A stretch of DNA of 63,393 nucleotides, filler included. It is 8 parts of 8 records of this genome, joined end to end, with 100 filler letters (N's around TTAATTAATTAA, not from the genome) between each part and the next. Parts side by side here need not be neighbours in the genome. Positions count along the whole stretch, not along the records: positions 22,780 to 36,551 come from DRR723986_31358; 7 more parts are not named here. One strand, 5' to 3'. This document shows positions 22,680 to 57,273 of this stretch, piece by piece. The position numbers and the translations under genes were made by a program. Every line of letters starts with the position of its first letter. Positions within the stretch are counted from its first letter, which is position 1. The notes under the pieces are model-generated. The model searched no databases, had not been told where the DNA came from, and saw only the letters and a program-made list of their open reading frames with translations.

Positions 22680-22891
22680 NNNNNNNNNNNNNNNNNNNNN
22701 NNNNNNNNNNNNNNNNNNNNNNNTTAATTAATTAANNNNNNNNNNNNNNNNNNNNNNNNNNNNNNNNNNNNNNNNNNNNGCCTGAGACCAAACGACACTG
22801 AAAGTGGAGAGCCGGGCTCAAAGCGATCTTTAACACATCCGAACGTGAGCTGGCTAAAATGCTGCTAGTTGATGCTGAGTTATCGGCTGCC

Positions 22892-23857: not shown

Positions 23858-23930
23858 GTTTGTGCCGCTTAAAAGTGCTTTGGATCGACTCCGCCGCGGA
23901 TGTGCAAGTGTTTAAGTTGTTAACTTGCAC

Positions 23931-25106
23931 TTATTGGGAATATGTGACGCGATAAATTGCTCCGGCACGATCGTCGGAAACCAACAGCGCTCCGTCGGGC
24001 ATTTGCATGACATCTACAGGCCGCCCCCAAACTTCATCACCGGGTTGAAGCCAACCTTCGATAAAGGGGCGGTAGGACGTCACTTCGTCGCCGTCGAGCA
24101 CTGCAATGCCTACACGATAGCCAATTTTATCTGAACGGTTCCAGGAGCCGTGTTCTGCAATAAAAATTGCATTGTGATACTGCTCTGGAAACATGGAGCC
24201 GGTGTAAAAACGCATTCCCAGTGCAGCTACGTGCGGCCCCAGTTTTTGCGCCGGTTTGCGATAGGTATCACCATCACAGCAGCCACCGCTTTCACAGAAC
24301 TCAAAGTCGATAATATCACCGGCGTGGCAGTAGGGAAAACCAAAGTGGAGACCGGCGCTTGGAGCGTGATTTAACTCATCGGACGGTTGATTGTCGCCGA
24401 GCCAGTCGCGCCCATTATCGGTGAACCACAATTCTTTGGTTTGTGGGTGGAAGTCAAAACCGACGCTGTTGCGTACACCATGTGCAAACACTTCCAGACC
24501 GGATCCATCGGGACGCATGCGCATGATTGTAGCAAAGCGTTCATCTTCTTCCTCACAGACGTTACATGGCGCGCCGACGGGCACATAGAGATAACCATCG
24601 GGACCGAAGCGAATAAACTTCCAGCCATGTGATTGTTCGGTGGGGAAGTCATCGCGTACAATTTCGCTTTGCGGGTTGTCGAGCCTGTTTTCGATATCCT
24701 TAAAACGCCAGACGCGGCTGACTTCGGCGACGAAGAGATCGGGGCCCAGCATAGCGACGCCGTTGGGCATGCGCATGCCGCTGGCGATTACTTTGACGTT
24801 CTCAGCGTAGTTGTCGTTATCCAGGTCACGGATTGCATAGACGCGATCGGATGCACGCGTTGAGACGAAGATTGTGCCGCCTGCGGCACGAGCCATGGAG
24901 CGTGCGGCGGGGACTTCGGCACAATAAGTGCTGATGCTAAAACCTTTGGGCATCTTGAGGAGTTCAAGCGGCAATTGCTGTGACGGCGTTTGCGCCTGAA
25001 GCGTACCTGTGTCAGCGCTTGAGTCCTGAGTCTCAGCGGCTTCGTCAGTATTCGCCGAGCAGGCCAGAGCGAAGCAGGTGAGAAGCATGATAAGAACGCG
25101 TTGCAT
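23931..25106 (-). CDS. PQQ-dependent sugar/sorbosone dehydrogenase family lipoprotein
   Basis: Lipobox-like ALAC; FGPDG, GAPCNVC, GVRNSVG, HGSWNR, GRPVDV. Confidence 0.9.
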   Translation of the reverse strand: MQRVLIMLLTCFALACSANTDEAAETQDSSADTGTLQAQTPSQQLPLELLKMPKGFSISTYCAEVPAARSMARAAGGTIFVSTRASDRVYAIRDLDNDNYAENVKVIASGMRMPNGVAMLGPDLFVAEVSRVWRFKDIENRLDNPQSEIVRDDFPTEQSHGWKFIRFGPDGYLYVPVGAPCNVCEEEDERFATIMRMRPDGSGLEVFAHGVRNSVGFDFHPQTKELWFTDNGRDWLGDNQPSDELNHAPSAGLHFGFPYCHAGDIIDFEFCESGGCCDGDTYRKPAQKLGPHVAALGMRFYTGSMFPEQYHNAIFIAEHGSWNRSDKIGYRVGIAVLDGDEVTSYRPFIEGWLQPGDEVWGRPVDVMQMPDGALLVSDDRAGAIYRVTYSQ

Positions 25107-25178
25107 GTGGACCCGGGGAGAGAGAGTTAGTGGCCAGAGTTGATTGGCTGAGTTGCTGGGTTGAATTGTTTAGCTGGA

Positions 25179-26246
25179 CTATTTGACGATTGGATTCGCT
25201 TCTGTGATTGCGCTGCTGTTGCCGCTCATCAGGACGGAAATGGGCCGCAGGGGCTCAATATTTTCCAGAACTATCTTGATTGTTGACATGATCGGGACAG
25301 CGAGAATGGCGCCCCATATGCCCCAGAGCCAGGACCAGAGGATCAGAGATACCAGAATGAGTACCGGGCTGAGGTTAAGGCGTGACTCCATCATTTTGGG
25401 TTCCACGACGTTGCCCATTACCAGTTGTGAACCGACGAGGAGACCGGCGATGATCAGCGGGGTCACAAAAGAGTCGAACTGTAATAGCGAAAGGAGGATG
25501 GGAAACAAGGTGGCTATAAAGGAGCCAACATTTGGTATGAAGTTCAGCAGAAAAGTCAGGAAGCCCCACAGTAGCGCAAAATCTACGCCGAAGGCATAGA
25601 GAATTCCAGCGGAGAGGCCCGCAGTTCCCAGGCTGACAACGATTTTTGTTGCGATGTACTGGCGGACCTGATTATCGATGTTTTGCGCCATTTTGGCGAG
25701 CTGCGAAGCGTGATTTGTAGAGAACGCGACGTTGAGCTTGCCGATAAACTGGCCTGAGCCACCCAGTAAAAACACCAGATAGAGCAGAATCAGGATGCCA
25801 TCGCCAACAGTATTGGCAAAAGAGCCAATTCCGGCGGTAAAGACAGATGTGAGTGAGCCAACTGAAACAAAATCACGCCAATCCTGGTCAGCTGTTAACT
25901 CACGCAGTAAGTCGTTCTGGCTGAGGGAGTCATATATATTGTTGATAATGTACTGTAGTTTCTCGCCGTACTTGGGAGCTTCGACTACGAAGGACTTAAT
26001 ACTGGTTGTGACGATCATGGAGAGACCAAACAAAAGTGCTCCCACAATACAGAGTACAATTAGCAGTGCGATGGCCGTAGGTACGCGCCGTTGCACCAAA
26101 TAAACAACGACGGGTTTGAACAAGTAGAAGATAAAGAGCGCAATCGCAAATGGAACCAGTACGGTTGATAGTTCCTTGAGTACAACGCCAACGGCTATAC
26201 AAGTAAGGACCCCGAGGAGTATAGACAGAACGCGCGAATCATTCAT
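25179..26246 (-). CDS. AI-2E family transporter
   Basis: Multi-TM protein; LNFIPNVGS, GNVVEPK, WGIWGAILAVP. Confidence 0.92.
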   Translation of the reverse strand: MNDSRVLSILLGVLTCIAVGVVLKELSTVLVPFAIALFIFYLFKPVVVYLVQRRVPTAIALLIVLCIVGALLFGLSMIVTTSIKSFVVEAPKYGEKLQYIINNIYDSLSQNDLLRELTADQDWRDFVSVGSLTSVFTAGIGSFANTVGDGILILLYLVFLLGGSGQFIGKLNVAFSTNHASQLAKMAQNIDNQVRQYIATKIVVSLGTAGLSAGILYAFGVDFALLWGFLTFLLNFIPNVGSFIATLFPILLSLLQFDSFVTPLIIAGLLVGSQLVMGNVVEPKMMESRLNLSPVLILVSLILWSWLWGIWGAILAVPIMSTIKIVLENIEPLRPISVLMSGNSSAITEANPIVK

Positions 26247-26442
26247 AAGGGTTGAATCCCCGACTGTTATGGGCATACCGGCCACCAGGTGTGGCTGCGT
26301 ACTAAATTAAAGACTAGCGGAGCTAATTGAAAGTAGGAGAGCCAGTGAGATTCCAGATAATTCCAAAAGCGCTGCGATGTTCAGCATGTTTGTCCTGCGC
26401 CGTAATGTTCGCGATCGGAGATAACGGCAGGTGTACTCATGG

Positions 26443-26471
26443 TTGATTTTCAGCAATATCGCTCGTATCTT
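26443..26471 (+). promoter_or_regulatory. Putative sigma70-type promoter
   Basis: TTGATT-17 nt-TATCTT upstream of the CDS at 26575. Confidence 0.45.
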
Positions 26472-26574
26472 CCGCTAACGAACTTCAGCGTGCCACGGTC
26501 GGAACTGCCGCCGCCCGCCATATTCCGGCCGCCCACAGAGCTCGCTTCTACGCAAGCTATATTCGATTAATTGT

Positions 26575-29500
26575 ATGCGCTCCATTTACGCTCGCATAGG
26601 AACCTTATTGACGCTGGTTTTTGCCGGCGCGGTACCGTGGTGCGCAGAAGTGACAGCCAAGTCTTCTGAAGTTGGAGCGCACACCAGTCTGTTTCAATCA
26701 AATGGTGGGCAATGGGCTTCTGAGGCGCGTTTCCTTTGTGATGTGCCGGGGTTGGCCCTGTGGGTGGGAGATACAACTCTGATCTTTGACCGCCGCCTGG
26801 GCGCCGGCGACAGTTCGCCGGACGGTTCCGGACACAGGCATATAACACGAATGCGATTTAGCGGTGCTTCCGCACGTGCGCATGCACGTCCTGCGGACGA
26901 GAGCATGTTTAGCCGTCGATACTTTTTGGGCGAATCTGCGGCGCATAGTAGTGCACACCGAGCGCTCCGCCTGGAAAGTTTGTATGCAGGCATCGACCTG
27001 GCGCTTGAGATCCAGGATGGATCGCCGCGTTATGACTTCCACGTCAGTCCCGGCGCCAATCCGGCGGATATCGCGATAGAATATGAGGGGATCGACTCAC
27101 TTTCGGTTCAGGCCCCAACAGAACTGACTTTGCACTCTGAAGTTGGTAACATTGTGCATCGCAATCTTTTGGCTTACCAGATTAATGCAGATGGTGCGCG
27201 CGAAACCGTAGAGTGTCGCTTCAGGCTGCGCGAACAAAACATTGTTGGATTTGAAGTCGGAGCGTATGACAAGACGCGCGAACTCATCATTGATCCATTG
27301 GTCTACAGCACATTTTTAGGCGGTTACGGCGATGATCAACCGCAGGACATTGTGCTCTTTGACGGCAAACTCTACCTGACCGGATTTACGACTTCGCGTT
27401 CATTTCCCGATGTGAGCGGAGTCGTCAGTAATACAACCGATAACAAAGAAGTATTTGTAACGCGACTTGCGCCAGACGGCGCGAGCGTCGAAGCCTCGGC
27501 AGTATTCGGTGGACTGAAAGACGAAGAAGCGCGTTCGCTTGCGGTTCTGCCTGATGGCCGCGTAGTGCTGGTGGGATGGACTGAATCGGGGGACTTTCCG
27601 GTTAGTTCCGGCAGCGCAATTCAGGATGACTTCAGTGTTCTGGGACCACGCGCTGCATTTTTACTGCTGCTGGAAAAAGACTTTCAGTTTGTGATTCATG
27701 GGACCTACTACGGCGGTTCCGGATCCGATGAAATCGAGGCTGTCCAAAATACCGGCAATGTGCTGCACTGTGTGGGCACAACCGGCTCTACGGATTTGTA
27801 CTGTCTTTCGTCCGGAGCGCTCAAAAGCACGCTGACCGGACTGACAGATGCTTTTTACATGCGTTTTGTTGTCAGCTCCGGTTCCAGCCTGGATTCCGGC
27901 ACAATCGAAAAACCAACAGGCACCCTGCTGGGCGGTTCCAGCAGTGATGAAGGCAATGCAATTCAGGTGTATGGCAGTAGCATTTACGTTGCCGGTGAGA
28001 CGCTCTCCAGCGACATTCAGACCATTAACAATCCTATCCAAAGTGACTGGAACGGCGGTGAAGATATGTTTTTCGCCATTCTGAAAAATGATATTAGCGC
28101 CTACGAATATGTCACCTATTATGGCGGCCCGCAGCATGAACGTGTCGAGTCAATTGGAATACTGGACGATGGTTCTGTAGTGCTTGGTGGAAATAATGAA
28201 GGCGGTGGTTTCCGCACAACACCCAATGCCTTTTCGACCGTAGGAGCGCGAGAATCCAACCCGGTGGTCGTCAAGTTTAAGCCCGGCCTGGGCACAAGAG
28301 ACTATGCCAGCTATTTGGGCCTCAAGAGCCCTGGAATTGATTTTGCGACCTTTGGTGACCTGACTATAGATAGCGATGCGAATATCATTTTGGTTGGCTC
28401 GACAACTTCCAAGGCCTTCGAGGTGACCGACAATGCGGAATATCCAGAGCTGGCCGGCTCAGCCGATGCCTGGACGATTATTCTGGCACCAGGTGATGAT
28501 ATAGATGTTTTGTATTCGAGTTACTTTGGCGGGGCTTCAGCGGACATCCCCACGGCGGTCGTCAGCTCCGGCAATGCTCGTTTCCACTTTGCAGGATTTA
28601 CCAAGTCCGCCGGCCCTGAATTCCCCACGACGGAAAACGCGTTTAGTCGCAGCAAACTGAATCCAGGAAATTCAAGTGAAAATGACGGTTTTGCTGTGCA
28701 TGTGCAGCTGGGGCCCAACTTGATTACTCCCGATGGCGGTGAGATATTTTGTGCTGAAACCGAGGTGCCAATTGAATGGGAAGGCTTATTCCGCGATGGT
28801 AGCATAGACCTGGCTCTTAGGGATGAAAACAACGGTCGCATCGAATTGATCGCGACGGATATTGAGACCAATTCCTCGCCGTTTTCATGGAACATACCCG
28901 ACGTAAGTGCTCCTGAGCACAATTTCCGTCTTGTGCTGCTGGGCCAAAACGGACGCGTTTTGGATAGCTCAGCCACGGTATTCAATATATATTCGCCACC
29001 CAAGTTTAATGAGTTTCTGCCGGAAGATACTACGGTCTGCTCCGGCACTTCACCGCGTTTGTTTGCGCGCGCCGGTGGTTATCCTGAACCCCAATTCATA
29101 CGCTGGGAGCAGAGCACGACCGGCTTTGACGGCAGCTGGGAACCCGCCGGAGTTGAGCCGCCTCGTCAGGTTTCAGTAGAGAGACATGACGGCCGTTTTT
29201 ACCGCGTTGTTTATGCGAATGAGTGTGACACTGTTGCGAGCCCCCACACAAAACTGAATGTTGAAGAATTTGATGCTATTATCAGTGGTGGTGGCTCTTT
29301 CTGTGTTGGATCCCGGGTTACGCTTAAAATTGTTGAACCGGCAGACGTTGTTGATCGCGGGATTCTCGTCCGCTGGGAAGTCGATCGTGGCGATGGAAGT
29401 GGGTTCCGCGTAATCGAAGGTGAACAGGGCGCGTCGCTGGCAATAGACATCGTAGATGCGTCGCGCGATGGATGGCGCTACCGCGTTTTCCTGGCAACGC

Positions 29501-31755
29501 CGGAGGGCTGCGAAGATTACAGCATGATTGAGAGGATCGATATCTTCCCCAGGCTCACAATTACTGAACAGCCGCAGTCCAGAGAAGTATGTTTTAGATC
29601 TTCAGTTGAATTTTCCGTTGATTATCCAAATAATCAGCCAACCGTGATTGAGTGGCAGTGGCGCCGTCCAGTAGAGACGGACTGGAGTGTGGCCGTCGGT
29701 TCAGGTGATGCCAAGCGTTTTCGGATCAATAATGTCGGTCCACAACTGGACGGCCGGCGCATCCGCGTGGCGGTTTATCATTGTAACGACACGACCTATT
29801 CCAGTGAAGCGATTTTACGCGTTATTCACCCTGGGCTCCTGAGGTTTGTTGAATCTGATACGCTGGACCTGGGGCGCATTGAGTCCTGTAATCTTAGCAC
29901 TTTACAGATTATACAGATTCGCAACGATGGTCCCAGTGACTTGACGGTGCAGGATTTGTTCTCGTCAGATCCGGGAGTGTCACTGGTGGGGGCTTCTCCA
30001 AACCCGATTCCGCCTGGACAGGTTGCGGACGTCTCAATTGCGTACGAACCACGTGCCGCAGGCCTCCTTGATTTTCGTGCCGACCTGATTTTTGAAGAAT
30101 GTGATGTGCGCCGCGCAATCACAATTCTGGGTGACATCCGCGGAGAGCGGCCGCGCCTGGAGCCGGCCGCGATCGATTTTGGTGCTGTACCAGTATGTAC
30201 TTCCACCGCAACGAGGTCACTGGAGCTTGTGGCGCCGCCGGAAAACGCCCTGGAGCTGCAAGGCATAGAGCTAAGCCCACCCTTTTCTACGGACTTCGAC
30301 CTGACGACTCCCGTGTTTGTGGCTGCAGGCGAGCGCTTGCCAATTCCAGTGACGCTCAGCCCAGTTACGGAGTCAGCCCTGCTGAGCGTCGCGCGGATTA
30401 CGTACCAGGCGGTTAATTGCGTTGATGCCAATGTGCTGGAGGCGACCCTTACGGCTGATGTTGGCTCAGCTGATTTAACGGTTGTGCCTCCGGCTCTCGA
30501 CTTTGAAATTTTTGACTGTGAGCTTCCGTACAGCGCGGAATTTGAGCTAAACAATCCCAGTGCCTTTGATGTGCCGCTCCAGTTCTCAGGCGAAGTCTTG
30601 CCAACAAATGCTCCCACCAGCCTGGCGGCAGGTGCTTCCGTAAGAATTGGATTCAGCATCGCAGAAATCGACGCTTTGACGCCATTACGCATGATCATTT
30701 CGAATATGCTTTGTGGACTGGATGACACGCTGACGTTTACTCCGCGCCTGACTAAGGTTGGACCAATTGAACTGCCACTGCTGCTCGACTATGGGATTGT
30801 CCGCAGCGGTATTACTTCCGCAGCCGGTGTGGGAATTACAAATACTGGTGAAACTCCCATTACGCTGACCGCTGTTGATGGTTTGGCGCTGGGCATCGAG
30901 CCCACTAATAGCACTGACCTGCCCCGGGAACTTGCCGTCGGCGAAACATTTGAGCTTTCGCTGAACTTGCTACCGGATGGAAGCAATGGCGTCGGAACTT
31001 TAACGCTGGAGTTTGAAACACCCTGTGGTCCGCAGCAGCAGACGATCGAAGTGACATCTGACCAGACCGAATCGTATTCGCTTGGATTTTCGGCCCGCTC
31101 GGGGTTTGTTGATCTGGGGGACACGGTGGATCTGTGTTTTACTCTGATCACGTCAGATGGTTTTGGCGAATTGACTGATGACTTCAGACTCAGTTTTGAG
31201 TTTGAATATAATTCTACCATTGTTGCACCAGTTGATTTGAGCCTGGAGACGCGCCGAGACCGAGCCCGTGCAGCCATAAGAATTGACACGATTTTGCCGC
31301 CGGCGCAAACGGAGATTATCTGCATTCCTATGATTTCAGGCTGGGGGAATGCCACCAATACGTATTTTGAGATTGTGGATGTGTCGGTTTCGCTGGCCTC
31401 GTCAGAGCGCATACTGGAACCATTGACCTGGACACAAACATTGGCCGGAGTCATGTTAATATCTGGAATTGGTCAGCGGCATCTGATAAATCCCGTTCCA
31501 GGTGTCTTATCTGTGAACATATTGAACACACCGATGGACATTGGTGCGCCATTGCAGATGGACCTGCGCGGTTTGCCGTCCGATGGGGCCACGCTTGAGG
31601 TCTATGATAGCTTCGGCCGTCTGGTGTATTCAGGTCGTGTGGATGGTGGTGTCACAAATCCTTCTGTAGATTTCGGAATTGCAGCGCCCGGTGTTTATTT
31701 TTGCCAGGTGAGTGTCGGTGCTTTTGCGATCACACGCCCATTCGTGGTTAATTAA
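26575..31755 (+). CDS. Large secreted protein: SBBP beta-propeller repeats, Ig-like and ASH/choice-of-anchor-D-like domains, T9SS-type C-terminus
   Basis: Signal peptide; LYAGID, YDFHVSPGANP, LIIDPLVYSTFLGG; repeated TYYGG/SYFGG; ITEQP Ig module; C-terminal YDSFGR...PGVYF. Confidence 0.85.
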   Translation: MRSIYARIGTLLTLVFAGAVPWCAEVTAKSSEVGAHTSLFQSNGGQWASEARFLCDVPGLALWVGDTTLIFDRRLGAGDSSPDGSGHRHITRMRFSGASARAHARPADESMFSRRYFLGESAAHSSAHRALRLESLYAGIDLALEIQDGSPRYDFHVSPGANPADIAIEYEGIDSLSVQAPTELTLHSEVGNIVHRNLLAYQINADGARETVECRFRLREQNIVGFEVGAYDKTRELIIDPLVYSTFLGGYGDDQPQDIVLFDGKLYLTGFTTSRSFPDVSGVVSNTTDNKEVFVTRLAPDGASVEASAVFGGLKDEEARSLAVLPDGRVVLVGWTESGDFPVSSGSAIQDDFSVLGPRAAFLLLLEKDFQFVIHGTYYGGSGSDEIEAVQNTGNVLHCVGTTGSTDLYCLSSGALKSTLTGLTDAFYMRFVVSSGSSLDSGTIEKPTGTLLGGSSSDEGNAIQVYGSSIYVAGETLSSDIQTINNPIQSDWNGGEDMFFAILKNDISAYEYVTYYGGPQHERVESIGILDDGSVVLGGNNEGGGFRTTPNAFSTVGARESNPVVVKFKPGLGTRDYASYLGLKSPGIDFATFGDLTIDSDANIILVGSTTSKAFEVTDNAEYPELAGSADAWTIILAPGDDIDVLYSSYFGGASADIPTAVVSSGNARFHFAGFTKSAGPEFPTTENAFSRSKLNPGNSSENDGFAVHVQLGPNLITPDGGEIFCAETEVPIEWEGLFRDGSIDLALRDENNGRIELIATDIETNSSPFSWNIPDVSAPEHNFRLVLLGQNGRVLDSSATVFNIYSPPKFNEFLPEDTTVCSGTSPRLFARAGGYPEPQFIRWEQSTTGFDGSWEPAGVEPPRQVSVERHDGRFYRVVYANECDTVASPHTKLNVEEFDAIISGGGSFCVGSRVTLKIVEPADVVDRGILVRWEVDRGDGSGFRVIEGEQGASLAIDIVDASRDGWRYRVFLATPEGCEDYSMIERIDIFPRLTITEQPQSREVCFRSSVEFSVDYPNNQPTVIEWQWRRPVETDWSVAVGSGDAKRFRINNVGPQLDGRRIRVAVYHCNDTTYSSEAILRVIHPGLLRFVESDTLDLGRIESCNLSTLQIIQIRNDGPSDLTVQDLFSSDPGVSLVGASPNPIPPGQVADVSIAYEPRAAGLLDFRADLIFEECDVRRAITILGDIRGERPRLEPAAIDFGAVPVCTSTATRSLELVAPPENALELQGIELSPPFSTDFDLTTPVFVAAGERLPIPVTLSPVTESALLSVARITYQAVNCVDANVLEATLTADVGSADLTVVPPALDFEIFDCELPYSAEFELNNPSAFDVPLQFSGEVLPTNAPTSLAAGASVRIGFSIAEIDALTPLRMIISNMLCGLDDTLTFTPRLTKVGPIELPLLLDYGIVRSGITSAAGVGITNTGETPITLTAVDGLALGIEPTNSTDLPRELAVGETFELSLNLLPDGSNGVGTLTLEFETPCGPQQQTIEVTSDQTESYSLGFSARSGFVDLGDTVDLCFTLITSDGFGELTDDFRLSFEFEYNSTIVAPVDLSLETRRDRARAAIRIDTILPPAQTEIICIPMISGWGNATNTYFEIVDVSVSLASSERILEPLTWTQTLAGVMLISGIGQRHLINPVPGVLSVNILNTPMDIGAPLQMDLRGLPSDGATLEVYDSFGRLVYSGRVDGGVTNPSVDFGIAAPGVYFCQVSVGAFAITRPFVVN

Positions 31756-31781
31756 TTGAATTTTATCCTGTTTTTACGCCA

Positions 31782-34064
31782 ATGACCGGTTTTGCACGAA
31801 GGGCGATTTTCCCGCTACTCATTTTACTGTTGTTGGCCGCATGTGAAGTCGTTCTGGCTCAATCGGCAGGAAGGCGTACATCCTTGCGCTCTTCGGCATC
31901 GACGGGCCCTGAACAGGAAATCCGGTTCGGCTATTATGCCACATGGCATGCCTCGATCCACACTGCTCGATTCGGCTACCTACCTCATGTTGAACTTGCT
32001 GAGGGTGATAGTGCAGTTGCCATAATTCGCGATGGTTTTGGCTGGGCCGGAAGTGTGGGCATGGCCTTTGATATTCCTTTTGACGACCCATCCGTGCTGG
32101 GCTTTCGAATGGGCTACACGTATCGCGACGCCACGCTGGACAAGCGCGCGATTCTACCACTTATCTTTGATGGAATTCCGGCCGAAGGAATTCTTGAAAA
32201 TCGTGTGGAAGGTCAGTTTGGCCACATGCAGCTGCAGGTGTTATGGGGTTATCGCATTGGCGACCTGTTCAGGTTGAACATCGGTGGTGAAGCGAACTTG
32301 CTGTTGCATTCAAACGTCAGGCAGGTTGAAGAAATCATTGAGCCCGTCGGGGCGCAATTCATAGATACAGGCACCCCACAGCGCCTGGCATATTCTGGAC
32401 GTTTTGATTCTGCGGCTGCCGTCTATGCGTCACTTCTGATGGGATTTCAACTCTTGCCCAGTGGGGCACTTCAGGTTGCCGGTATGCACGTCATGCCTGA
32501 AATCCGGGTTACGTTTCCGCTTACGGGCATCTGGAATAATGGAAACTGGAACATACACTCCTTGCGCCTGGGCATCACTGTAATGAATCCGCCTGAGTTG
32601 CCGCCACCACCTCCACCGCGCGATACGAGCAAAGTGGCGCCACCGATAACAAAAAGAGAGCCAGTTAAACCAAGGTCTTCTGGTTCGGCTTTTGTGTACG
32701 ATACACTGGATGTGCGGCGCGATACCCTTATTAGGTCTACCAGTGAGATTACTACAAACATTCTAACACTGGATACCACACGTATGGAGCGTTCCTCGCG
32801 GCGCGAGAATGGTCAGACAATCGTGATTTTACAGCCGGTCGAAACCTGGATTCTGCATTTGCCCGAAGTCAAACCGCTCCTGGTCTCAAGTGTGGCCGCT
32901 GCATTTGTGCTTGAGAATGACTCATTGAGCAACCAGGCCAAGGTCACGCTGGAAGAATTTGTCATGAATCGGCATGTGCCGCCGTTGAACTACATATTCT
33001 TTGAGGAGGACCAGGCTAGCTTGCCGGATAGGTATGCCAAGCTGTTACCCAGGGAAGCCGAGCGTTTTACCTCGGAGTCGTTTTACAGTCAATCAACGCT
33101 GGGACTCTATCACAATGTGCTCAATATCATCGGCGAGCGCATGCGCAGACTGCCGGATGCATCGATTGTTCTGCGTGGCTACAATGCCGGAGTCGAAAAT
33201 GAAAAGAATAACTCTGAGCTGTCGATGCTGCGTGCCGAGACAGTCAGAAGTTACCTGCGTGACGTATGGAACATAGACCCGGCACGCATGCGCAGTGAGG
33301 CCTCTGACTTGCCGCCGCGGCCTTCGGCACTCGAAACCCCCGAGGGGCGAAATGAAAATCGCCGCGTCGAAATCCAGGCCTCCGATCCTCAAATATTTGA
33401 ACCGGTGTTGTTGAGCGACACCGTCCGCATCATCGATCCGCCAACCATTCGCTTCAGGACTTCCGTCGTTTCCGATGCCGGAATTGAATCCTGGCGCCTG
33501 GAAGTCTCGCAGTCAGGTCAACTCCTGAAGGACATTCGCGGTCTGGGTGAAGTGCCGCCCAATGTAGACTGGCGTATCCGTGATGACATTCTGCGGCCCC
33601 TGGCCGATGAACCCCTGCGCTACCGCCTGCACGTGCGTGACTCAACCGGCCAGGAATTCTCTACGGCCACCGACGCCGTCATCCAATTTGAACAGCGCAC
33701 GCTCAGCCGCAAACGCAAGGAGCGCCTCGGGGATAAACTCATTGATCGTTTTTCTCTGATTCTATTTGACTTTGATGAAGATCAGGTCACCGACGAACAC
33801 GAGCGAGTGCTTTCAATTATTCGTGAGCGTATCACGCCCGAGTCTCGTATCAAGGTAACCGGTTCTACCGACCGCGTTGGAGAGCAGCAGTACAACCTGG
33901 ACCTCTCACTGCGCCGCGCGCAGTCGATTGCAAAGGCACTGGGGCTGCCGATTGATAACGCGGAAGGTGTTGGTGAAGATGAGATAACGTTTGACAACGA
34001 TCTGCCCGAAGGTCGTTTCTATAGCCGCACCGTGCGCGTGTTAATTGAAACTCCTACGAAGTAA
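31782..34064 (+). CDS. OmpA family protein (N-terminal beta-barrel, Pro linker, two OmpA-like C-terminal domains)
   Basis: PPLNYIFF, LSMLRAETV, NRRVEI; LILFDFD, GSTDRVG, LSLRRA, RTVRV. Confidence 0.85.
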   Translation: MTGFARRAIFPLLILLLLAACEVVLAQSAGRRTSLRSSASTGPEQEIRFGYYATWHASIHTARFGYLPHVELAEGDSAVAIIRDGFGWAGSVGMAFDIPFDDPSVLGFRMGYTYRDATLDKRAILPLIFDGIPAEGILENRVEGQFGHMQLQVLWGYRIGDLFRLNIGGEANLLLHSNVRQVEEIIEPVGAQFIDTGTPQRLAYSGRFDSAAAVYASLLMGFQLLPSGALQVAGMHVMPEIRVTFPLTGIWNNGNWNIHSLRLGITVMNPPELPPPPPPRDTSKVAPPITKREPVKPRSSGSAFVYDTLDVRRDTLIRSTSEITTNILTLDTTRMERSSRRENGQTIVILQPVETWILHLPEVKPLLVSSVAAAFVLENDSLSNQAKVTLEEFVMNRHVPPLNYIFFEEDQASLPDRYAKLLPREAERFTSESFYSQSTLGLYHNVLNIIGERMRRLPDASIVLRGYNAGVENEKNNSELSMLRAETVRSYLRDVWNIDPARMRSEASDLPPRPSALETPEGRNENRRVEIQASDPQIFEPVLLSDTVRIIDPPTIRFRTSVVSDAGIESWRLEVSQSGQLLKDIRGLGEVPPNVDWRIRDDILRPLADEPLRYRLHVRDSTGQEFSTATDAVIQFEQRTLSRKRKERLGDKLIDRFSLILFDFDEDQVTDEHERVLSIIRERITPESRIKVTGSTDRVGEQQYNLDLSLRRAQSIAKALGLPIDNAEGVGEDEITFDNDLPEGRFYSRTVRVLIETPTK

Positions 34065-34141
34065 AACCGGCACATTGTTTCGAGGTAAGCTGTGTGCAGG
34101 AATGGCTTAACAAATCCACTGCTAAACAATTCAGGTTTGTG

Positions 34142-34789
34142 ATGACGAGTAAAACAACAGCCGACGGAATAATGGGGCAGCTGGCTTCGGCCGCCGGCCG
34201 CAAAGACGAGGCACTTAACGTCGAGCTGGCCGGTCGCATTGCCGAGGCTGAAGACGGTGGCGCAGTCAGCCAATTAATCGCCATTCTGCAGGAAGCCAAA
34301 AAGGCGTTTCAGAGCGATGCAATTAAAGTGCTCTACGAAATTGGTGAACGCCGTCCGGAACTGATCGCAGAACACGTGCCTGTGTTTAAGTCGTTGTTAT
34401 CAAGTAAAAACAATCGCTTGCAATGGGGCGGCATGTGCGCGCTGGCGCAAATTGCACATCCAGAGCCCGCCAGGATTTATGCTGAGTTAACAGACATAAT
34501 GCAAGCCGCAGGGCGTGGCTCCGTGATTACTCGTGATAATGCGGTTGCTATCTTGTTGACTCTACTACAACAGAAACAATATCGCGCTGAGATATTCCCG
34601 CTACTACTTGAACAACTGCGAACGAGCCCACCAAATCAAGTGCCGATGTACGCTGAGCGCGCGCTGCCCCTGCTGCAGTCACAGGAGTTTGCAGCTGTAC
34701 ATCAGGCTTTGGAAGCGCGCCTGGATGATATCGAAAAGGAAAGCAAACGTCGCCGTGTGCAGAAAGTAATGCAACGCCTGCAGCCCTAA
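34142..34789 (+). CDS. Conserved hypothetical HEAT/ARM-repeat-like protein
   Basis: All-helical pattern; SDAIKVLYEIG, NNRLQWGGM, SVITRD, QVPMYAE. Confidence 0.7.
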   Translation: MTSKTTADGIMGQLASAAGRKDEALNVELAGRIAEAEDGGAVSQLIAILQEAKKAFQSDAIKVLYEIGERRPELIAEHVPVFKSLLSSKNNRLQWGGMCALAQIAHPEPARIYAELTDIMQAAGRGSVITRDNAVAILLTLLQQKQYRAEIFPLLLEQLRTSPPNQVPMYAERALPLLQSQEFAAVHQALEARLDDIEKESKRRRVQKVMQRLQP

Positions 34790-34808
34790 GATATGTTAAA
34801 CACACAAG

Positions 34809-34839
34809 CTCCGGGCACCAACTGTGTTAATGCCCAGAG
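34809..34839 (-). terminator. Hairpin downstream of Cys-rich gene 1, between convergent genes
   Basis: Minus RNA CUCUGGGCAUUAAC-ACA-GUUGGUGCCCGGAG with G-U pairs, followed by CUUGUGUGUUU. Confidence 0.55.
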
Positions 34840-34883
34840 TGTTAATGTAGCATGTTTGTTATGCGTTTTCCAATAACGAGTCA

Positions 34884-35246
34884 TTAGTTGTAACAGCAGC
34901 AGCGCCAGCGGACTCTCACCCGCACCGCACAGTTGCCATTTGGCAATACTTCTGTCGTGCACTGTGACGATTTAATGTCAATGTAACAGTTTTCCGTTGT
35001 GCTACACTGACTCTCAATATCAGTCTGTGCGCGTTCAATGGCCTGTTGTTTAAATAGGGTCATGACATCGGCAGGGATGTTGCAATCAAACTGATCGCTA
35101 AACACAACTGTAGTTATCAGGTCCGAACAATCAGCAGTCCCTTGTGTGTCACCGGTCAAAGCTCTTTTTGTCGTTTCGGCAGATTGGAGGCTCAAGGTTG
35201 GTACAGCCAATAACAATACGGCTAACAATGCATACAAGCGTCGCAT
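34884..35246 (-). CDS. Small secreted Cys-rich protein, paralog 1
   Basis: Signal peptide; DCSD, SDQFDCN, NGNC, RWRCCCYN; similar to 35746-36111. Confidence 0.8.
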   Translation of the reverse strand: MRRLYALLAVLLLAVPTLSLQSAETTKRALTGDTQGTADCSDLITTVVFSDQFDCNIPADVMTLFKQQAIERAQTDIESQCSTTENCYIDIKSSQCTTEVLPNGNCAVRVRVRWRCCCYN

Positions 35247-35293
35247 GGAATTACCCCGTTTAACTAAATAGTATAGAATGAGATCTTATATCG

Positions 35294-35323
35294 ATTGCGT
35301 TTGGTGGCAGTCGGCGACGCAAT
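35294..35323 (-). promoter_or_regulatory. Candidate cis-regulatory RNA hairpin, copy 1
   Basis: AUUGCGU [CGCCGACUGCCACCAA] ACGCAAU, 47 nt before the ATG. Confidence 0.6.
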
Positions 35324-35360
35324 GAAGTCAGATCACGTTAGGTTGGCTGTAACGAGGAAG

Positions 35361-35390
35361 AATATACCCATGAATTGTACACGGATCCAA
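35361..35390 (-). promoter_or_regulatory. Putative sigma70-type promoter of paralog 1
   Basis: TTGGAT-18 nt-TATATT, in the same position as the paralog 2 promoter. Confidence 0.5.
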
Positions 35391-35653
35391 CTAAAAAAAA
35401 TCGCGCGCGCTGTGTCGAAATTCTGCTGCGTTTACTTTGTTCGACAACTTCACTTGTCTGGATGATATAAACCTGAAATCCGTCAGCTTACAGCTTTGTG
35501 GCAAAGGGTGTCTTCCTTTTGTTGCTTTAATTAAGACCAGGCTTGAGCTGCGCTCGCCTTCTCATGCCATTTTTGTTAGTTTGTGTTCCGCAAGCCAGAG
35601 GAATTTAAGCCTCCTTAGAGACCAGGCAAGGGAACTGTACTGTTAAACACAGG

Positions 35654-35688
35654 CAACCTGGGCGCTACTTGAAGTGGCGCTCAGGTTG
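35654..35688. terminator. Hairpin downstream of Cys-rich gene 2
   Basis: CAACCTGGGCGCTAC...GTGGCGCTCAGGTTG. The minus strand continues with TGTGTTTAACA, as in paralog 1. Confidence 0.5.
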
Positions 35689-35705
35689 GAAAGTTATGTG
35701 AGTTT

Positions 35706-35739
35706 TATCTGACTATGTTAACTATCTGACTATGTTAAC
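35706..35739. repeat. Exact 17-bp tandem duplication
   Basis: TATCTGACTATGTTAAC x2. Confidence 0.9.
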
Positions 35740-35745
35740 AATGCC

Positions 35746-36111
35746 TTAGCCAAAGCAGCAGCACTGCCAGCGGATACCAACTATGACAACACAGTTGCCG
35801 TTATCAAGCTGAACAATTGTCGCCTGGCGCTCTAAGACTTCAACAAAACACTCATCCGTGGTTTTGATGCATTCGTCTTGTGCCTTGCGCAGAGCGCGGT
35901 TATAGGCTTGCCGCGCGGCGGCTTCAATTACATCAGCTCCGGCATTACAGTCAAATTGATCGCTGCGGGCGCTTGAAGACTTAACATCAGAACAGTCGGG
36001 CGATGAAACAACAGCAACTGCTGTTTCATTTTGAGTCATTTCGGCAGAATGTAAGCTGACCAATGGTGCTGCCATTAACAAAGCGGCAAGCAATGCGTAG
36101 AAGCGTTTCAT
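35746..36111 (-). CDS. Small secreted Cys-rich protein, paralog 2
   Basis: Signal peptide; DCSD, SDQFDCN, NGNC, RWQCCCFG. Confidence 0.8.
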   Translation of the reverse strand: MKRFYALLAALLMAAPLVSLHSAEMTQNETAVAVVSSPDCSDVKSSSARSDQFDCNAGADVIEAAARQAYNRALRKAQDECIKTTDECFVEVLERQATIVQLDNGNCVVIVGIRWQCCCFG

Positions 36112-36154
36112 AGAAAACTCCGATAAAGTAATAATGAATATAGTGTAGTATAGC

Positions 36155-36186
36155 GTGTACGCTTGGTGGCAGTGTTAAACGTACAC
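36155..36186 (-). promoter_or_regulatory. Candidate cis-regulatory RNA hairpin, copy 2
   Basis: GUGUACGU [UUAACACUGCCACCAA] GCGUACAC, 43 nt before the ATG. Confidence 0.6.
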
Positions 36187-36221
36187 TCGCGATGTCGTGA
36201 ACATGATGGCAGTCTCAGCGG

Positions 36222-36250
36222 AATATACTCGTGTTTGTAGGCGATGTCAA
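36222..36250 (-). promoter_or_regulatory. Sigma70-type promoter of paralog 2
   Basis: TTGACA-17 nt-TATATT with an A-rich upstream tract. Confidence 0.75.
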
Positions 36251-36958
36251 GTAAATAATTTTTTTTTCTCCGATACAATCCGCATAAAAGCCTTGTCAAA
36301 TTGCCGGACAAAAGCGCTTGATTTGCCTGTTTCTGAGTGTGACAGCCGCCTTAAGCACTAAGCCACAAGGCCAATGCCCCCAGAAAGTGTCAACGTTAAA
36401 ATCCACTACATTTCGTCTTGCAATAGATGCAAACTCCTCAACAAAAACTCGCCTTACTTGGGCTCAAGCTGCCGGAGCCGAGCACACCCGGCGGCGAATA
36501 TGAGTCAGTCAACATTCGCGCCGGCCAGGCGACTGTTGCGATTCAGTTTCCNNNNNNNNNNNNNNNNNNNNNNNNNNNNNNNNNNNNNNNNNNNNTTAAT
36601 TAATTAANNNNNNNNNNNNNNNNNNNNNNNNNNNNNNNNNNNNNNNNNNNNAATGCAAATCAAGTCAAACTGAAAGAGCGGGCGAGAGCACAATGCCGCA
36701 AGTCAATCAACTTCAAGACCGATGCAATTGATTCCAACGAATCAGTTTTTTGTTGATGCTCTAACGTGTGTTTCGCTAAATCCGCAAAAATGTCGGCCTG
36801 TTAGCGCTCTATTAATAATTAGATAAAATGCCCTGCGGACAATACCGTCACTAGCCCGGATGCAGCATCGGGGGGCGGCGCAGCATTAATAGCGTCCGTT
36901 TCTGACTGTGAATTTTTGTAAATTCTGCTTGCAAGCCGATATGTAGAATCGGCGATTT

Positions 36959-39900
36959 GTGTCTGTGCAGCATTTCCGAGAAGAGCCGGAAGATATCATG
37001 ACAGGACTCAACGACGCGTATTTAGAAGAACTGTATTTTCAATTTCTGCGCGACCCGCAGTCGGTCAGTGCAGAATGGCGTAACTATTTCGCCGACAATC
37101 GGGCGGAAATCACGAAACAAATTACGGAAGACCGTGGCGCAGACGTCGCCGATGCCAGTGATTCACTGGTGCCCGCGCGGCCACCTGCAGCGGCGAGCCC
37201 ACCAGCTCAGCGGCCTACACCAGGCCCGGGCAATGGTCAGGCCACCCAGCGTCCGGCTGCCAACGGCCACAATCGTGGTCCCGGCCCGGCACGTGGCAAT
37301 GCAGCCGCGCCGGCGCGTCCCACTCCCAAAGCGCCAAACCCCGCTCCGGCTCCAACTGCCAAAGCATCGGCCCCAGCGGCTGCAAACAAACCAGCCAAAA
37401 CTGCGCCGAGCGAAAAGCCCGACGTCTACGTTGCTGCGAATGATGAGCTCCAGTCCCTCAGCGGGATCGCCGGAAAAATTGCCGTTAACATGGATGACAG
37501 TCTGTCGATACCAACGGCTACCTCCGTGCGTACACTGCCGATCATCGTGCTCGATGAAAACCGGCGCATGTTTAATCACCTGCTGGTCAAGAGCGGACGT
37601 GGCAAACTTAGCTACACACATATCGTAGCCTGGGCGATTGTCAAAGCGCTGCAGAAATTCCCGCAGATGAATGATGCCTATGCCGTTGCCGGCGGCAAGC
37701 CGCATCGCGTCAAGCGCGGACAGATCAACCTTGGTCTGGCGGTTGATGTGCAGCGCAAAGATGGCTCCCGAATGTTAATGGTTCCCTGCATCAAGGATGC
37801 AGGCAGCCTCAACTTCCTTGAGTTTGTTGATGCCTACGACGCGATTGTGCGCAAAGCACGTACCGGCTCAATTGGTCCCGACGACCTGATGGGTACAACC
37901 GTCACACTCACAAATCCGGGCGGTATCGGCACAATCGCCTCGATGCCCCGCCTTATGAAAGGGCAGGGACTGATTTTGGCGACGGGTTCAATCGATTATC
38001 CGCCCGAGTTCGCTGCCGTGGCACCGAACGTGCGCGCCTCGATGGCCGTCAGCAAAGTCATGACAATTACCAGCACCTATGATCACCGCATTATTCAGGG
38101 TGCTGAGTCAGGCGTATTCCTGCAGTACATGCACAAATTGCTGCTGGGTGAAGAAAAATTTTACGATTCGATTTACTCGCACTACGACATCCCATTTTTC
38201 CCGGTACGTTGGGAAGCCGACAACATGGCGCATCACTTTGCGGGCATGGATCAGGCGGACGTTGTAGAGAAAGAAAGTAAAGTCCTGCAGATGATCAACG
38301 CATATCGCGTGCGTGGACATTTGTATGCCGACGTAAATCCACTCTACGGCCCCAAGTATGAATACGAGGAGCTGGAACCTAGCTTCTACGGCCTCACAGT
38401 CTGGGACTTTGAGCGCGAATACGATACTGGTGGATTGAGTGGTGTGACGCGCGCCCGTCTGCGCGATATCATTACCAGCGTGCGCGATATTTATTGCGGC
38501 AAAATCGGTATTGAGTTCATGCACATTCAGGAGCCGGCGAAGAAGGCCTGGGTGCGCAAGCAGTTTGAGACGCATTACCATGGCATCGAATTCGAGGCGG
38601 CCACCAAGACGCGCGTTTTCCGCCAATTGGTCCGTGCCGAAGTATTTGAGTCTTTCCTGGGCACCAAGTTCCTGGGACAAAAACGCTTCTCACTGGAAGG
38701 CGCCGAAGTCTTGATCAGCATGCTGCACGCAATGGTGGACAAAGCTGTTGAACATCGCGCCTCCGAGATGTACATGGGTATGGCTCATCGCGGACGCCTC
38801 AACGTGCTCGTCAACCTCTTAAACAAATCTGCCGAGCAGGTTTTCCGCGAGTTCGACGGTATCGGCGATCCGCATGAAAGTTTCCACGGTTCCGGTGATG
38901 TTAAATATCACCTGGGAGCCGACGGCGAAGTGGCATCGAGCAAAGGCAATGCCGTGCGTATTACGCTGGCGTCTAACCCCAGCCACCTTGAAGCGGTTGA
39001 TCCGGTGGTCGAAGGGATGGCGCGTGCACGCATCGACCAGCTCAAAGACGACAAGTACCGCAAGGTCATTCCCGTCCTCATCCACGGCGACTCCGCATTT
39101 GCGGGGCAGGGCGTCGTCACCGAAACATTAAACCTGGCCAACCTGAAAGGTTATGGCACAGGTGGAACGATTCACATCATCATTAACAATCAAATCGGCT
39201 TTACAACCCTGCCCGACGATGCGCGCTCCACGCCGTACGCCTCGGACGTATCCAAGATGCTGCAGGTGCCGGTTGTTCATGTTAATGCCGATGATCCGGA
39301 AGCTGTGCTGCGCGCCACCATTTTTGCGATGGACTACCGCGCCGAGTTTAACCAGGATGTGGTGATTGACCTGCTCTGCTACCGCAAGTATGGCCACAAT
39401 GAAACCGATGAGCCTGCATTTACACAGCCGGTGCTCTACAAGAAAATTCGCTCGCTGCGCCCGTGGTCCGATTATTATGGAGCAAAACTGGTGCGCGACT
39501 CGGTCCTGACTAAAGAAGAAGCCGATGAGATTCGAGCCGGTGAGCGCGAGACGCTCAACCGCGCATTCGAAGCGCGCAAAGATGTGCCGAAGGGCAATGG
39601 TTCGAATGGTCCACGCATCCGTCCCAACGCTTTTGAAGCCGTTGAAACACGCGTCGATGCAGCCACGCTGACGGAACTCTCACAGAAGTTAACCGTCGCT
39701 CCCGAGGACTTTAACATTCACCGCAAATTGGCGGACATGCTGCAGAAGCGGCATGATTCGGTTGTGCGTAACGCCGGAATCGACTGGGGCACAGGTGAGA
39801 CGCTTGCCTATGCTTCGCTTGTGACCGAAGGCCATCCGGTGAGGCTCTCGGGCCAGGACTCGGCTCGTGGGACATTTACGCATCGCCATGCAGTTCTCAC

Positions 39901-40801
39901 CGACCAGGTCTCTGAGCGCGAATTCCTGCCGCTCAACAACCTGGCACCGGGCTCACAGGCCAAATTTTCGGTGTATGACAGCTCGCTGTCTGAATTCGCG
40001 GTGGTTGGTTTTGAGTACGGTTACTCCGTCGTCTGCACCGAAGGTCTGATCCTTTGGGAAGCCCAGTTTGGTGACTTTGCCAATGGCGCGCAGGTAATCT
40101 TTGACCAGTTTATGTCTTCGTCCGAAGAAAAATGGGGTCAAACTTCCAATGTTGTCATTCTGCTGCCACACGGATACGAAGGCCAGGGGCCTGAGCACTC
40201 GAGTGCGCGCATGGAGCGTTTCCTGCAGATGGCGGCCGAGGACAACATGATCGTTTCCAATTACACCACGCCGGCCAACTACTTTCATGCTGTGCGCCGT
40301 CAGGCCAAACGCAGCATTCGCAAGCCGCTGGTGATCTTTACGCCCAAGGCCAATTTGCGCCGTCCAACCTCGACGCTGGATGACTTCAGCAAATTTGGCT
40401 ATCTGGAAATTATAGATGATGCCGCTGTAGCTGCCAAAGCAGAGAAAACACGTCGCGTTTGTCTTTGTAGCGGTAAAGTGTATTTTGACCTCCTGACTGA
40501 ACGTGACAAGCGCGGCATAGATGACGTCGCCCTCGTACGTGTTGAACAGCTCTACCCACTGCATACTGAGCGTCTTGAGGAGCTGTTTGATCAATACAAG
40601 AATGCCGAAATCTGCTGGGTGCAGGAAGAGCCGAAGAACATGGGCGCCTGGACCTTTATGCAAGCTTCACTGCTCGACGAGTTCCCGCAGCGATCACGTC
40701 CACGTTATATCGGCAGGCGCGCAGGTGCCAGTCCGGCCACGGGTAACAACCTGGTGCACCAACGTGAGCAGAAGGAAATTATCAATGAGGCCCTGGCCTG
40801 A
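36959..40801 (+). CDS. sucA: Multifunctional 2-oxoglutarate dehydrogenase E1 with fused E2 catalytic domain (Kgd/OdhA type)
   Basis: TYDHRIIQGA (E2 catalytic), KRFSLEG, GMAHRGRLN, HGDSAFAGQG, WEAQFGDF, GPEHSSAR. Confidence 0.95.
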   Translation: MSVQHFREEPEDIMTGLNDAYLEELYFQFLRDPQSVSAEWRNYFADNRAEITKQITEDRGADVADASDSLVPARPPAAASPPAQRPTPGPGNGQATQRPAANGHNRGPGPARGNAAAPARPTPKAPNPAPAPTAKASAPAAANKPAKTAPSEKPDVYVAANDELQSLSGIAGKIAVNMDDSLSIPTATSVRTLPIIVLDENRRMFNHLLVKSGRGKLSYTHIVAWAIVKALQKFPQMNDAYAVAGGKPHRVKRGQINLGLAVDVQRKDGSRMLMVPCIKDAGSLNFLEFVDAYDAIVRKARTGSIGPDDLMGTTVTLTNPGGIGTIASMPRLMKGQGLILATGSIDYPPEFAAVAPNVRASMAVSKVMTITSTYDHRIIQGAESGVFLQYMHKLLLGEEKFYDSIYSHYDIPFFPVRWEADNMAHHFAGMDQADVVEKESKVLQMINAYRVRGHLYADVNPLYGPKYEYEELEPSFYGLTVWDFEREYDTGGLSGVTRARLRDIITSVRDIYCGKIGIEFMHIQEPAKKAWVRKQFETHYHGIEFEAATKTRVFRQLVRAEVFESFLGTKFLGQKRFSLEGAEVLISMLHAMVDKAVEHRASEMYMGMAHRGRLNVLVNLLNKSAEQVFREFDGIGDPHESFHGSGDVKYHLGADGEVASSKGNAVRITLASNPSHLEAVDPVVEGMARARIDQLKDDKYRKVIPVLIHGDSAFAGQGVVTETLNLANLKGYGTGGTIHIIINNQIGFTTLPDDARSTPYASDVSKMLQVPVVHVNADDPEAVLRATIFAMDYRAEFNQDVVIDLLCYRKYGHNETDEPAFTQPVLYKKIRSLRPWSDYYGAKLVRDSVLTKEEADEIRAGERETLNRAFEARKDVPKGNGSNGPRIRPNAFEAVETRVDAATLTELSQKLTVAPEDFNIHRKLADMLQKRHDSVVRNAGIDWGTGETLAYASLVTEGHPVRLSGQDSARGTFTHRHAVLTDQVSEREFLPLNNLAPGSQAKFSVYDSSLSEFAVVGFEYGYSVVCTEGLILWEAQFGDFANGAQVIFDQFMSSSEEKWGQTSNVVILLPHGYEGQGPEHSSARMERFLQMAAEDNMIVSNYTTPANYFHAVRRQAKRSIRKPLVIFTPKANLRRPTSTLDDFSKFGYLEIIDDAAVAAKAEKTRRVCLCSGKVYFDLLTERDKRGIDDVALVRVEQLYPLHTERLEELFDQYKNAEICWVQEEPKNMGAWTFMQASLLDEFPQRSRPRYIGRRAGASPATGNNLVHQREQKEIINEALA

Positions 40802-41769: not shown

Positions 41770-42112
41770 GCGTTTGCCTTCATTGCGTCAAATAAGCTGC
41801 TAGCCTATCAAATAAGCTGTTAGCCTAAGGCTAACAGCTATAGNNNNNNNNNNNNNNNNNNNNNNNNNNNNNNNNNNNNNNNNNNNNTTAATTAATTAAN
41901 NNNNNNNNNNNNNNNNNNNNNNNNNNNNNNNNNNNNNNNNNNNGCCAAGGGCTCCGTCAGCCACGGGTGCCGCAGCGGTGAGGCCATGCCCCGGCATCGG
42001 GACCGGGGCGTGGCTGACGGGCCGAGCCGCCGGTCCACGCCGCCCATGCCTCACTCGAAGCGCAGGCTGGCGCGGACTTGATCCGGCGCGCGCATCGCCC
42101 CAGTTTCGGGGG

Positions 42113-48174: not shown

Positions 48175-48274
48175 NNNNNNNNNNNNNNNNNNNNNNNNNN
48201 NNNNNNNNNNNNNNNNNNTTAATTAATTAANNNNNNNNNNNNNNNNNNNNNNNNNNNNNNNNNNNNNNNNNNNN

Positions 48275-57054: not shown

Positions 57055-57273
57055 NNNNNNNNNNNNNNNNNNNNNNNNNNNNNNNNNNNNNNNNNNNNTT
57101 AATTAATTAANNNNNNNNNNNNNNNNNNNNNNNNNNNNNNNNNNNNNNNNNNNNTACTTTTTTATGCAATGAAAAAAAGTAAGACCATATGCTAAAATTC
57201 ATGCAGAAGTTTTGTCATATCTTACTGTGTCTTGACTACCACTGGTTGTCTAAATACTTCATCAATTTAGTCC

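Follow-up and report, generated by a model that had tools for sequence, protein, structure and literature searches.

Each of two tandem genes for secreted cysteine-rich proteins, geneA and geneB, carries in its 5' leader a hairpin whose stem has changed in sequence with its pairing kept, and whose 16-nt loop ends in the same 11-nt box; the element is probably a real regulatory RNA that is found only in one uncultured lineage. The window, that is, the whole stretch of DNA that was analysed, has a length of 63393 nt and consists of eight contigs artificially joined, and gene order across the joints is without meaning. N-runs form the joints, and a gap of 12 nt interrupts each of them (where it was read, at 36596-36607, it is TTAATTAATTAA); both genes and their hairpins belong to the piece 22780-36551, and the upstream region of geneB stops at the joint (36551). 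The features that are needed first are as follows.

5018-5117, 11754-11853, 22680-22779, 36552-36651, 41844-41943, 48175-48274 and 57055-57154: seven N-runs, the joints of the window
34884-35246, minus strand: geneA, 120-aa secreted Cys-rich paralog, ending in RWRCCCYN
35746-36111, minus strand: geneB, 121-aa secreted Cys-rich protein, ending in RWQCCCFG
34809-34839, minus strand: terminator-like hairpin after geneA, from the terminator scan
35294-35323, minus strand: geneA hairpin, 7-bp stem ATTGCGT/ACGCAAT and 16-nt loop
36155-36186, minus strand: geneB hairpin, 8-bp stem GTGTACGT/GCGTACAC with one U-G pair, and 16-nt loop

The proteins encoded by geneA and geneB are 44% identical; a signal peptide is present in both, as are several conserved cysteines and RW(R/Q)CCC at the C-terminus. 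Neither matched a Pfam family, and the protein atlas gave no convincing neighbour for the family. For the mature part a confident fold is predicted (pLDDT >90 for most of residues 41-120), namely strand-helix-strand-strand followed by the C-terminal CCC, and its comparison with the PDB returned nothing significant (the best E was 0.12, and chains of MoaC, dodecin and DUF74 were near the top of the list). Several other features of the surroundings were noted. Directly after the geneB stop codon there is a perfect tandem duplication of a 17-nt unit, TATCTGACTATGTTAAC (35706-35739, 2.0 copies), which is adjoined by a 17-nt inverted repeat (35654-35688). The 500-nt spacer between geneB and geneA holds a terminator-like hairpin on the plus strand, opposite to the genes (35498-35525); a plus-strand transcript stopping there would be antisense to the geneA leader, and the promoter scan found no promoter for such a transcript. 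The next contig piece encodes a 1280-aa fused 2-oxoglutarate dehydrogenase with the acyltransferase (E2) domain ahead of the E1 domains (36959-40801).

Read on the minus strand, the geneA hairpin is made up of the 5' arm ATTGCGT (35323-35317), the loop CGCCGACTGCCACCAA (35316-35301) and the 3' arm ACGCAAT (35300-35294), and the geneB hairpin of the 5' arm (G)TGTACGT (36186-36179), the loop TTAACACTGCCACCAA (36178-36163) and the 3' arm GCGTACA(C) (36162-36155). Both loops end in ACTGCCACCAA (RNA ACUGCCACCAA; 35311-35301 in geneA and 36173-36163 in geneB), an 11-mer that has exactly two sites in the 63-kb window, both of them in these loops, and beside this identical segment the remaining 5 nt of the loops have fully diverged. 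The original prediction had described just such a 16-nt loop ending in an identical 11-mer in each paralog leader, and this description holds; it had placed the hairpins 47 and 43 nt before the start codon, of which the distance of 47 nt for geneA (ATG at 35246) was reproduced while that for geneB was counted as 44 nt (ATG at 36111). It had also called the two leaders barely alignable, which is overstated, since promoter and leader together are 59% identical (102/173 columns), near the 60% of the coding sequences. At this level of identity, an 11-nt identical run is by itself unremarkable, and it is the paired but changed stems that form the real signal.

All seven pairs are standard in geneA and in geneB, and the predicted three double compensatory changes and the one change from U-A to U-G were found again; about half of the stem positions differ between the two copies with the pairing intact. 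When the 3' partners were slid by 1-3 columns, at most 57% of the cells were paired, compared to 100% in register. The pair-counting tool was applied to the two window copies only, and a shuffle test on these two sequences is without power, 64 of 500 shuffles reaching the observed value. Another control concerned the relation of stem and box: CGT-N5-ACTGCCACCAA was collected from viral contigs, where its 118 occurrences are due to chance, and at none of these does a stem of at least 7 bp close the 16-nt loop (the longest stem has 6); the stem is therefore not a by-product of the box.

Relatives of the gene pair were found in two metagenome-assembled genomes, G001 and G002, which are close to each other and carry two tandem paralogs each, 'a' and 'b'. 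The exact 11-mer ACTGCCACCAA is absent from their Cys-rich loci. The leaders of the 'a' paralogs have a promoter-like site, TTGACA-17-TATTTT, recognised by eye, and a hairpin with the arms GCATTTGCA and TGCAGATGT (9 bp including two G-U pairs) around the loop CCAT(CA/TT)ACTGCTTACC, which is exactly 16 nt long, holds ACUGC and lies 45 nt from the ATG. Their positions, taken from a loop-anchored alignment, are as follows.

L007 5398-5431: leader hairpin of G001a
L008 4996-5029: leader hairpin of G002a

The G001a and G002a hairpins are near-identical, and the independent hairpin sequences are three, namely geneA, geneB and the G001a/G002a lineage. The alignment of the four hairpins was anchored on the 16-nt loops by a custom script, as MAFFT left the stems out of register. 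In this alignment pairs 1-7 are standard in 28/28 cells and comparison of the three lineages shows both partners changed in six of the seven pairs; all four loops have 16 nt, and the gap to the ATG is 47, 44 and 45 nt. Within pairs 1-7 there are wobbles in geneB (pair 1) and in G001a/G002a (pair 5), and each of them becomes an A-C mismatch on the opposite strand; that the wobble pairs on one strand only, as had been stated for geneB, thus extends to the relatives. When the G001a leader was shuffled with its dinucleotides preserved, 49/20000 shuffles produced a hairpin with ACTGC enclosed by at least 7 bp, and of the 12 sites of ACTGCTTACC in G001 and G002 the two leader sites alone are enclosed by stems of at least 7 bp. 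The proposal of selection on a sense-strand RNA hairpin is supported by these results and is strengthened by the third version of the stem in G001/G002. The leaders of the second paralogs ('b') of both genomes lack the element and have a different hairpin without the box.

Model searches between the two groups were made in both directions. A covariance model built from the window copies only (R1) ranked the sense-strand hairpin first among its matches in the 121-nt G001a leader (8.6 bits, with an E of 0.018 that applies to this small search space), and in an 87-kb search the G001a hairpin was not reported at E<=10. The reverse model, built from G001a/G002a (R2), reported neither window hairpin in 1752 nt and had its best matches elsewhere, at 8.1 and 7.5 bits. 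These reciprocal searches are not convincing, and on its three independent sequences the hairpin appears a modest candidate for a new lineage-restricted RNA motif.

It could be argued that the inverted repeat is a non-functional relic inherited by the paralogs, with the compensatory changes and the resemblance of G001a due to chance. The powerless two-sequence test, the failed reciprocal searches, the weak folding z-scores given below and the identical 11-nt run, which is not extreme between leaders of this identity, all agree with such an origin; however, all seven pairs have been kept in both window copies with half of the stem positions changed, the independent shuffle and chance controls (49/20000 and 0/118) point the other way, and loop length and distance to the ATG are alike in three lineages. 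A relic is hard to square with the controls and is considered very improbable.

Upstream of the hairpins the leaders share further elements, which are listed here together with a conserved block on the 3' side.

36222-36250, minus strand: geneB promoter-like site, TTGACA (36250-36245), 17-nt spacer, TATATT (36227-36222), scored 11/12 by the tool
35361-35390, minus strand: geneA promoter-like site, TTGGAT, 18-nt spacer, TATATT, recognised by eye and failing the tool threshold
36203-36213, minus strand: geneB box 1, ACTGCCATCAT, repeat of the loop box, 8 nt downstream of the -10 hexamer
35341-35350, minus strand: geneA box 1, ACAGCCAACC, repeat of the loop box, 10 nt downstream of the -10 hexamer
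35287-35293 (geneA) and 36149-36155 (geneB), minus strand: conserved CG-N-TATA block 3' of the hairpin, within the repeat D5 (25 nt, 80% identity)

The upstream promoter that had been predicted for both genes is thus found by the tool in geneB, whereas in geneA it is seen by eye and stays below the threshold; the geneA -10 block is conserved with that of geneB (direct repeat D15), and an A-run precedes the promoter-like site in geneB and a T-run that in geneA. If used, these promoters would put the window hairpins approximately 25-30 nt into the transcripts, and that of G001a approximately 18 nt. The CG-N-TATA block is either a part of the motif or a -10-like hexamer (TATAAG in geneA, TATACT in geneB); since each window hairpin is followed by this hexamer at a distance of 3 nt, transcription may also start downstream of the hairpin.

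Box 1 sits 8-10 nt after the -10 hexamer in all four hairpin-bearing leaders. In geneB it reads ACTGCCATCA and is identical to its own loop box at 9/10 positions, which was reached by 33/20000 shuffles; in G001a (ACTGCCGACC) and G002a (ACTGCCAACC) the identity is 8/10, reached by 80/20000 and 106/20000 shuffles, respectively. In geneA the value is 7/10 (3336/20000 shuffles), which alone is not significant, and the offset from the promoter is as in the other leaders. The two boxes are spaced 39/40 nt apart in the window leaders and 30 nt apart in that of G001a, a difference of about one DNA turn. The unit begins with the promoter; box 1 follows at the predicted 5' end and is separated by a spacer from the hairpin with box 2, after which come about 45 nt that are G-poor and AU-rich and then the Shine-Dalgarno sequence.

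The second box beside the promoter was missed by the original prediction, and because of it a reading at the level of DNA stays alive, in which the directly repeated ACTGCC-type boxes bind a transcription factor that blocks or loops the promoter and the inverted repeat is incidental. Counted from the predicted start, the boxes lie near +3 and near +43 (the second near +33 in G001a); box 1 abuts the start site in all four leaders, the spacings of 39/40 and 30 nt differ by roughly one helical turn, and in G001 an ECF sigma factor gene with a likely partner is situated 2-4 kb upstream. Yet such an operator leaves unexplained the two-sided stem changes with pairing kept, the fixed 16-nt loop and the wobble pairs that pair on one strand; neither a palindrome nor a known operator consensus was recognised, TGGCAG on the opposite strand lacks the sigma-54 spacing, and no regulon was found with ACTGCYWACC in the window (11 matches compared to 9.45 expected) or among the 30 examined of the 42 ACTGCCRACC sites in G001. 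A DNA operator is therefore regarded as decidedly unlikely.

For the latter pattern G001 has 42 sites, of which 30 were examined: 29/30 were scored as lying in long open frames, and two of those 29 (L186 and L187) lie, on reading, between tandem genes. One of the 30 is the G001a leader itself, and two are in the leaders of tandem giant secreted paralogs. The locus of these paralogs (L198 143-10424, on contig C9 of G001) holds three tandem proteins of approximately 1100 aa with signal peptides, and in two of its intergenic leaders ACTGCCGACC occurs at a distance of 37 nt upstream of the ATG (3571-3580 and 7055-7064); there is no likeness in promoter or hairpin, and these boxes are probably due to chance plus paralogy. 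As for the ECF-type sigma factor gene, it lies in L007 1390-3137, encodes the Sigma70_r2 and r4_2 domains and overlaps a 387-aa ORF without a Pfam family, possibly an anti-sigma factor; the pair stands 2-4 kb upstream of the Cys-rich genes, and the matching region of the window is cut by the contig end. A reading of the leaders as ECF promoters was rejected on reading the sequences. In sigma-54 promoters the GG and GC elements are always 10 nt apart (TGGCAC-N5-TTGC), and such a promoter on the opposite strand was likewise rejected, the GC element being one position off for the TGGCAG of geneA and missing at that place in geneB, and the G001a loop being without TGGCA.

The folding energies of the hairpins are ordinary and weak. 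Minimum-energy folding of complete leaders yields the hairpin in geneA, geneB and G002a, and folding of local segments yields it in geneB and G001a; in its 48-nt segment the geneA hairpin, which alone has -5.7 kcal/mol, gives way to another minimum-energy fold. The whole-leader z-scores of the four leaders are +0.24, -0.27, -1.50 and -1.45, and the local z-scores are -1.10, -1.84 and -2.00 on the sense strand and -1.97, +0.32 and +0.22 on the antisense strand. An RNA hairpin may also act without a dedicated partner, by stabilising the mRNA or by organising an unstructured ribosome standby region, in which case the box would be kept for local folding or through limited divergence. The strong, consensus-like promoters and the G-poor, AU-rich 45-nt tract, which suggest highly expressed secreted proteins, and the fact that no partner was found in any search speak for a function of this kind. 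Protective hairpins, however, normally stand at the very 5' end of the mRNA, while the present ones start approximately 25-30 nt (window) or 18 nt (G001a) after the predicted start, and neither the 11-nt identical loop segment beside a diverged 5-nt segment nor the second copy of the box would be accounted for; a purely structural role is thus unlikely.

With the hairpins, their covariation, the repeated box and the promoter-like sites in hand, it is quite possible, if still short of probable, that a sense-strand stem-loop in the 5'-UTR presents the box to a trans-acting RNA-binding factor, which we infer, as we infer that the region is transcribed. The stem of 7-9 bp, free in sequence, would hold open the 16-nt loop, in which the 5' third is variable and the 3' two-thirds form a conserved box rich in C, which reads ACUGCCACCAA in the window copies and ACUGCUUACC in those of the relatives. 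Box 1 would stay unpaired where the predicted transcript begins and serve as a second, linear site, and the two boxes together would make an operator with two sites, both recognised sequence-specifically by one RNA-binding factor, which may be a small RNA or a protein, the latter possibly dimeric. Such a factor may co-regulate the translation or the stability of the paralog mRNAs, in a direction that is likewise conjectural, and the 45 G-poor, AU-rich nucleotides between hairpin and start codon would stay unstructured for ribosome loading. More tentatively, and as far as the sequences suggest, this might be a new two-box RNA operator in which a lineage-specific regulator or small RNA of an uncultured bacterial group reads the same 10-nt C-rich box twice, at the 5' end of the mRNA and in the hairpin loop, and co-controls the orphan protein family.

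The presumed partner was sought in several ways. Searches of the window and the genomes for a trans factor, a complementary RNA and further target genes found none, and no conserved complement of the loop was found within the mRNAs. Box 1 has a complement in codons 13-15 of the gene that follows it, and this helix occurs in the minimum-energy folds of geneA (box 1 at 35350-35343 with 35210-35203, ACAGCCAA/UUGGCUGU) and geneB (36212-36206 with 36075-36069, CUGCCAU/AUGGCAG), with two apparent compensatory differences between them. It was rejected as a candidate, being no better than in codon-shuffled coding sequence (fractions 0.19 and 0.79) and lost in G001a/G002a. In the literature, the papers inspected among those listed for the 11-mer ACTGCCACCAA and its complement are unrelated, as far as titles and abstract openings tell.

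Further copies of the hairpin, for which a covariance-model search had been proposed, did not appear: covariance models and pattern searches found none in the window, in the four genomes of the family or in 151 genomes of the order. In the four family genomes the 11-mer has six matches, none in such a hairpin, and R1 has one match (E 3.3); in the 151 order genomes R1 has 19 matches with per-genome E values of 0.007-0.86, and the best 8 of the 19 look like chance or coding matches. The distribution of the protein is similarly narrow. The Cys-rich proteins are an orphan family, with two matches in a search of 5.8 billion proteins, one cluster in a profile search of 1.84 billion representatives and two loci in a search of genome contigs; they occur in 2/254 genomes of the order, in 2/4 of the family and in 1/401 of a phylum sample. 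Metagenome contigs contained nothing, either with the family alignment or with the OmpA-like neighbour as an anchor, a conserved neighbour that is 71-72% identical.

If real, the element is a compact and easily mutated RNA operator, made up of a stem, a variable part of the loop, a conserved box and a second box; it comes from a lineage without genetics, may be a bait with which to find a new regulator that binds RNA, and suggests that an orphan family of secreted Cys-rich proteins is controlled in a coordinated way. What is new here is the third version of the stem in the relatives and the second box beside the promoter. The reach is narrow, the family being present in two order genomes and in no other of 400 phylum genomes sampled, and the element is for this reason a curiosity for those who hunt RNA motifs and not a general principle.

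Comparison with known classes began with Rfam. The hairpin had been described as belonging to no recognised family, and in agreement with this Rfam 15 has no match at gathering score over the 63393-nt window; between 34700 and 36550 there are three sub-threshold matches (13.7-17.5 bits compared to the 36-55 needed, E >=1.4), none of them on the hairpins. An intrinsic terminator has a G+C-rich stem, a short loop and a U-run on the 3' side. A terminator or attenuator was rejected, as the loops have 16 nt and none of the four terminator-like sites in the scan is at the hairpins, whose 3' flanks in the window are CGAUAUAAG and CGCUAUACU. A leader peptide was also considered: geneA and G001a have 20-codon TTG frames (35322-35260 on the minus strand and L007 5402-5464) that run from the 5' arm of the hairpin to just before the Shine-Dalgarno sequence and have similar ends (ILFS and ILFFP). 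These frames lack a Shine-Dalgarno sequence of their own, geneB has no equivalent and a 1-nt indel shifts the frame in G002a, and the candidate was rejected. Integron attC sites have R''/R' boxes at the 3' end of cassettes, and HUH origin hairpins adjoin a Rep, relaxase or integrase gene; the present hairpins lie 5' of genes with their own promoters and share no RYYYAAC/GTTRRRY boxes, and no Rep, relaxase or integrase gene is among the contig neighbours scanned with Pfam, which led to the rejection of attC as well as of an HUH/Rep origin.

Among protein-read leader elements, the hairpin bound by LoaP, a NusG paralog, is, like similar leader stem-loops recognised by proteins, a small hairpin in a long 5' leader, as here, and is a specific protein-binding site through which long biosynthetic operons are controlled by antitermination; unlike that system, no NusG paralog or long operon was seen among the neighbours scanned. 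The phage lambda nut site likewise has a linear box near the transcript start followed by a hairpin with a covarying stem, and its boxB loop is read by a protein for antitermination of downstream terminators. However, the boxB loop has 5 nt and the present loop 16 nt, the linear box here has the sequence of the loop box, and the genes are single and short, with no terminator to read through; a lambda-type nut site was rejected for the loop length and because the scan shows no terminator between hairpin and gene. Stabilisers of the ompA type, found on mRNAs of abundant secreted or envelope proteins, resemble the present leaders in having a stem-loop followed by an unstructured AU-rich region for ribosome loading, but they stand at the extreme 5' end and need no conserved loop, whereas here the hairpin is internal and the loop box is conserved and duplicated. 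CsrA/RsmA sites present GGA (ANGGA) in a loop or single strand, usually with one site over the Shine-Dalgarno sequence. The loops and boxes described here are without GGA or ANGGA, neither box overlaps the Shine-Dalgarno sequence, and the boxes are at least 44 nt upstream of the ATG, so binding sites for this protein were rejected. In two-site operators of CsrA/RsmA, a dimeric RNA-binding protein bridges both sites and controls translation or stability, and what the present leaders have in common with them is the same short single-stranded motif placed twice in one leader, once in a hairpin loop.
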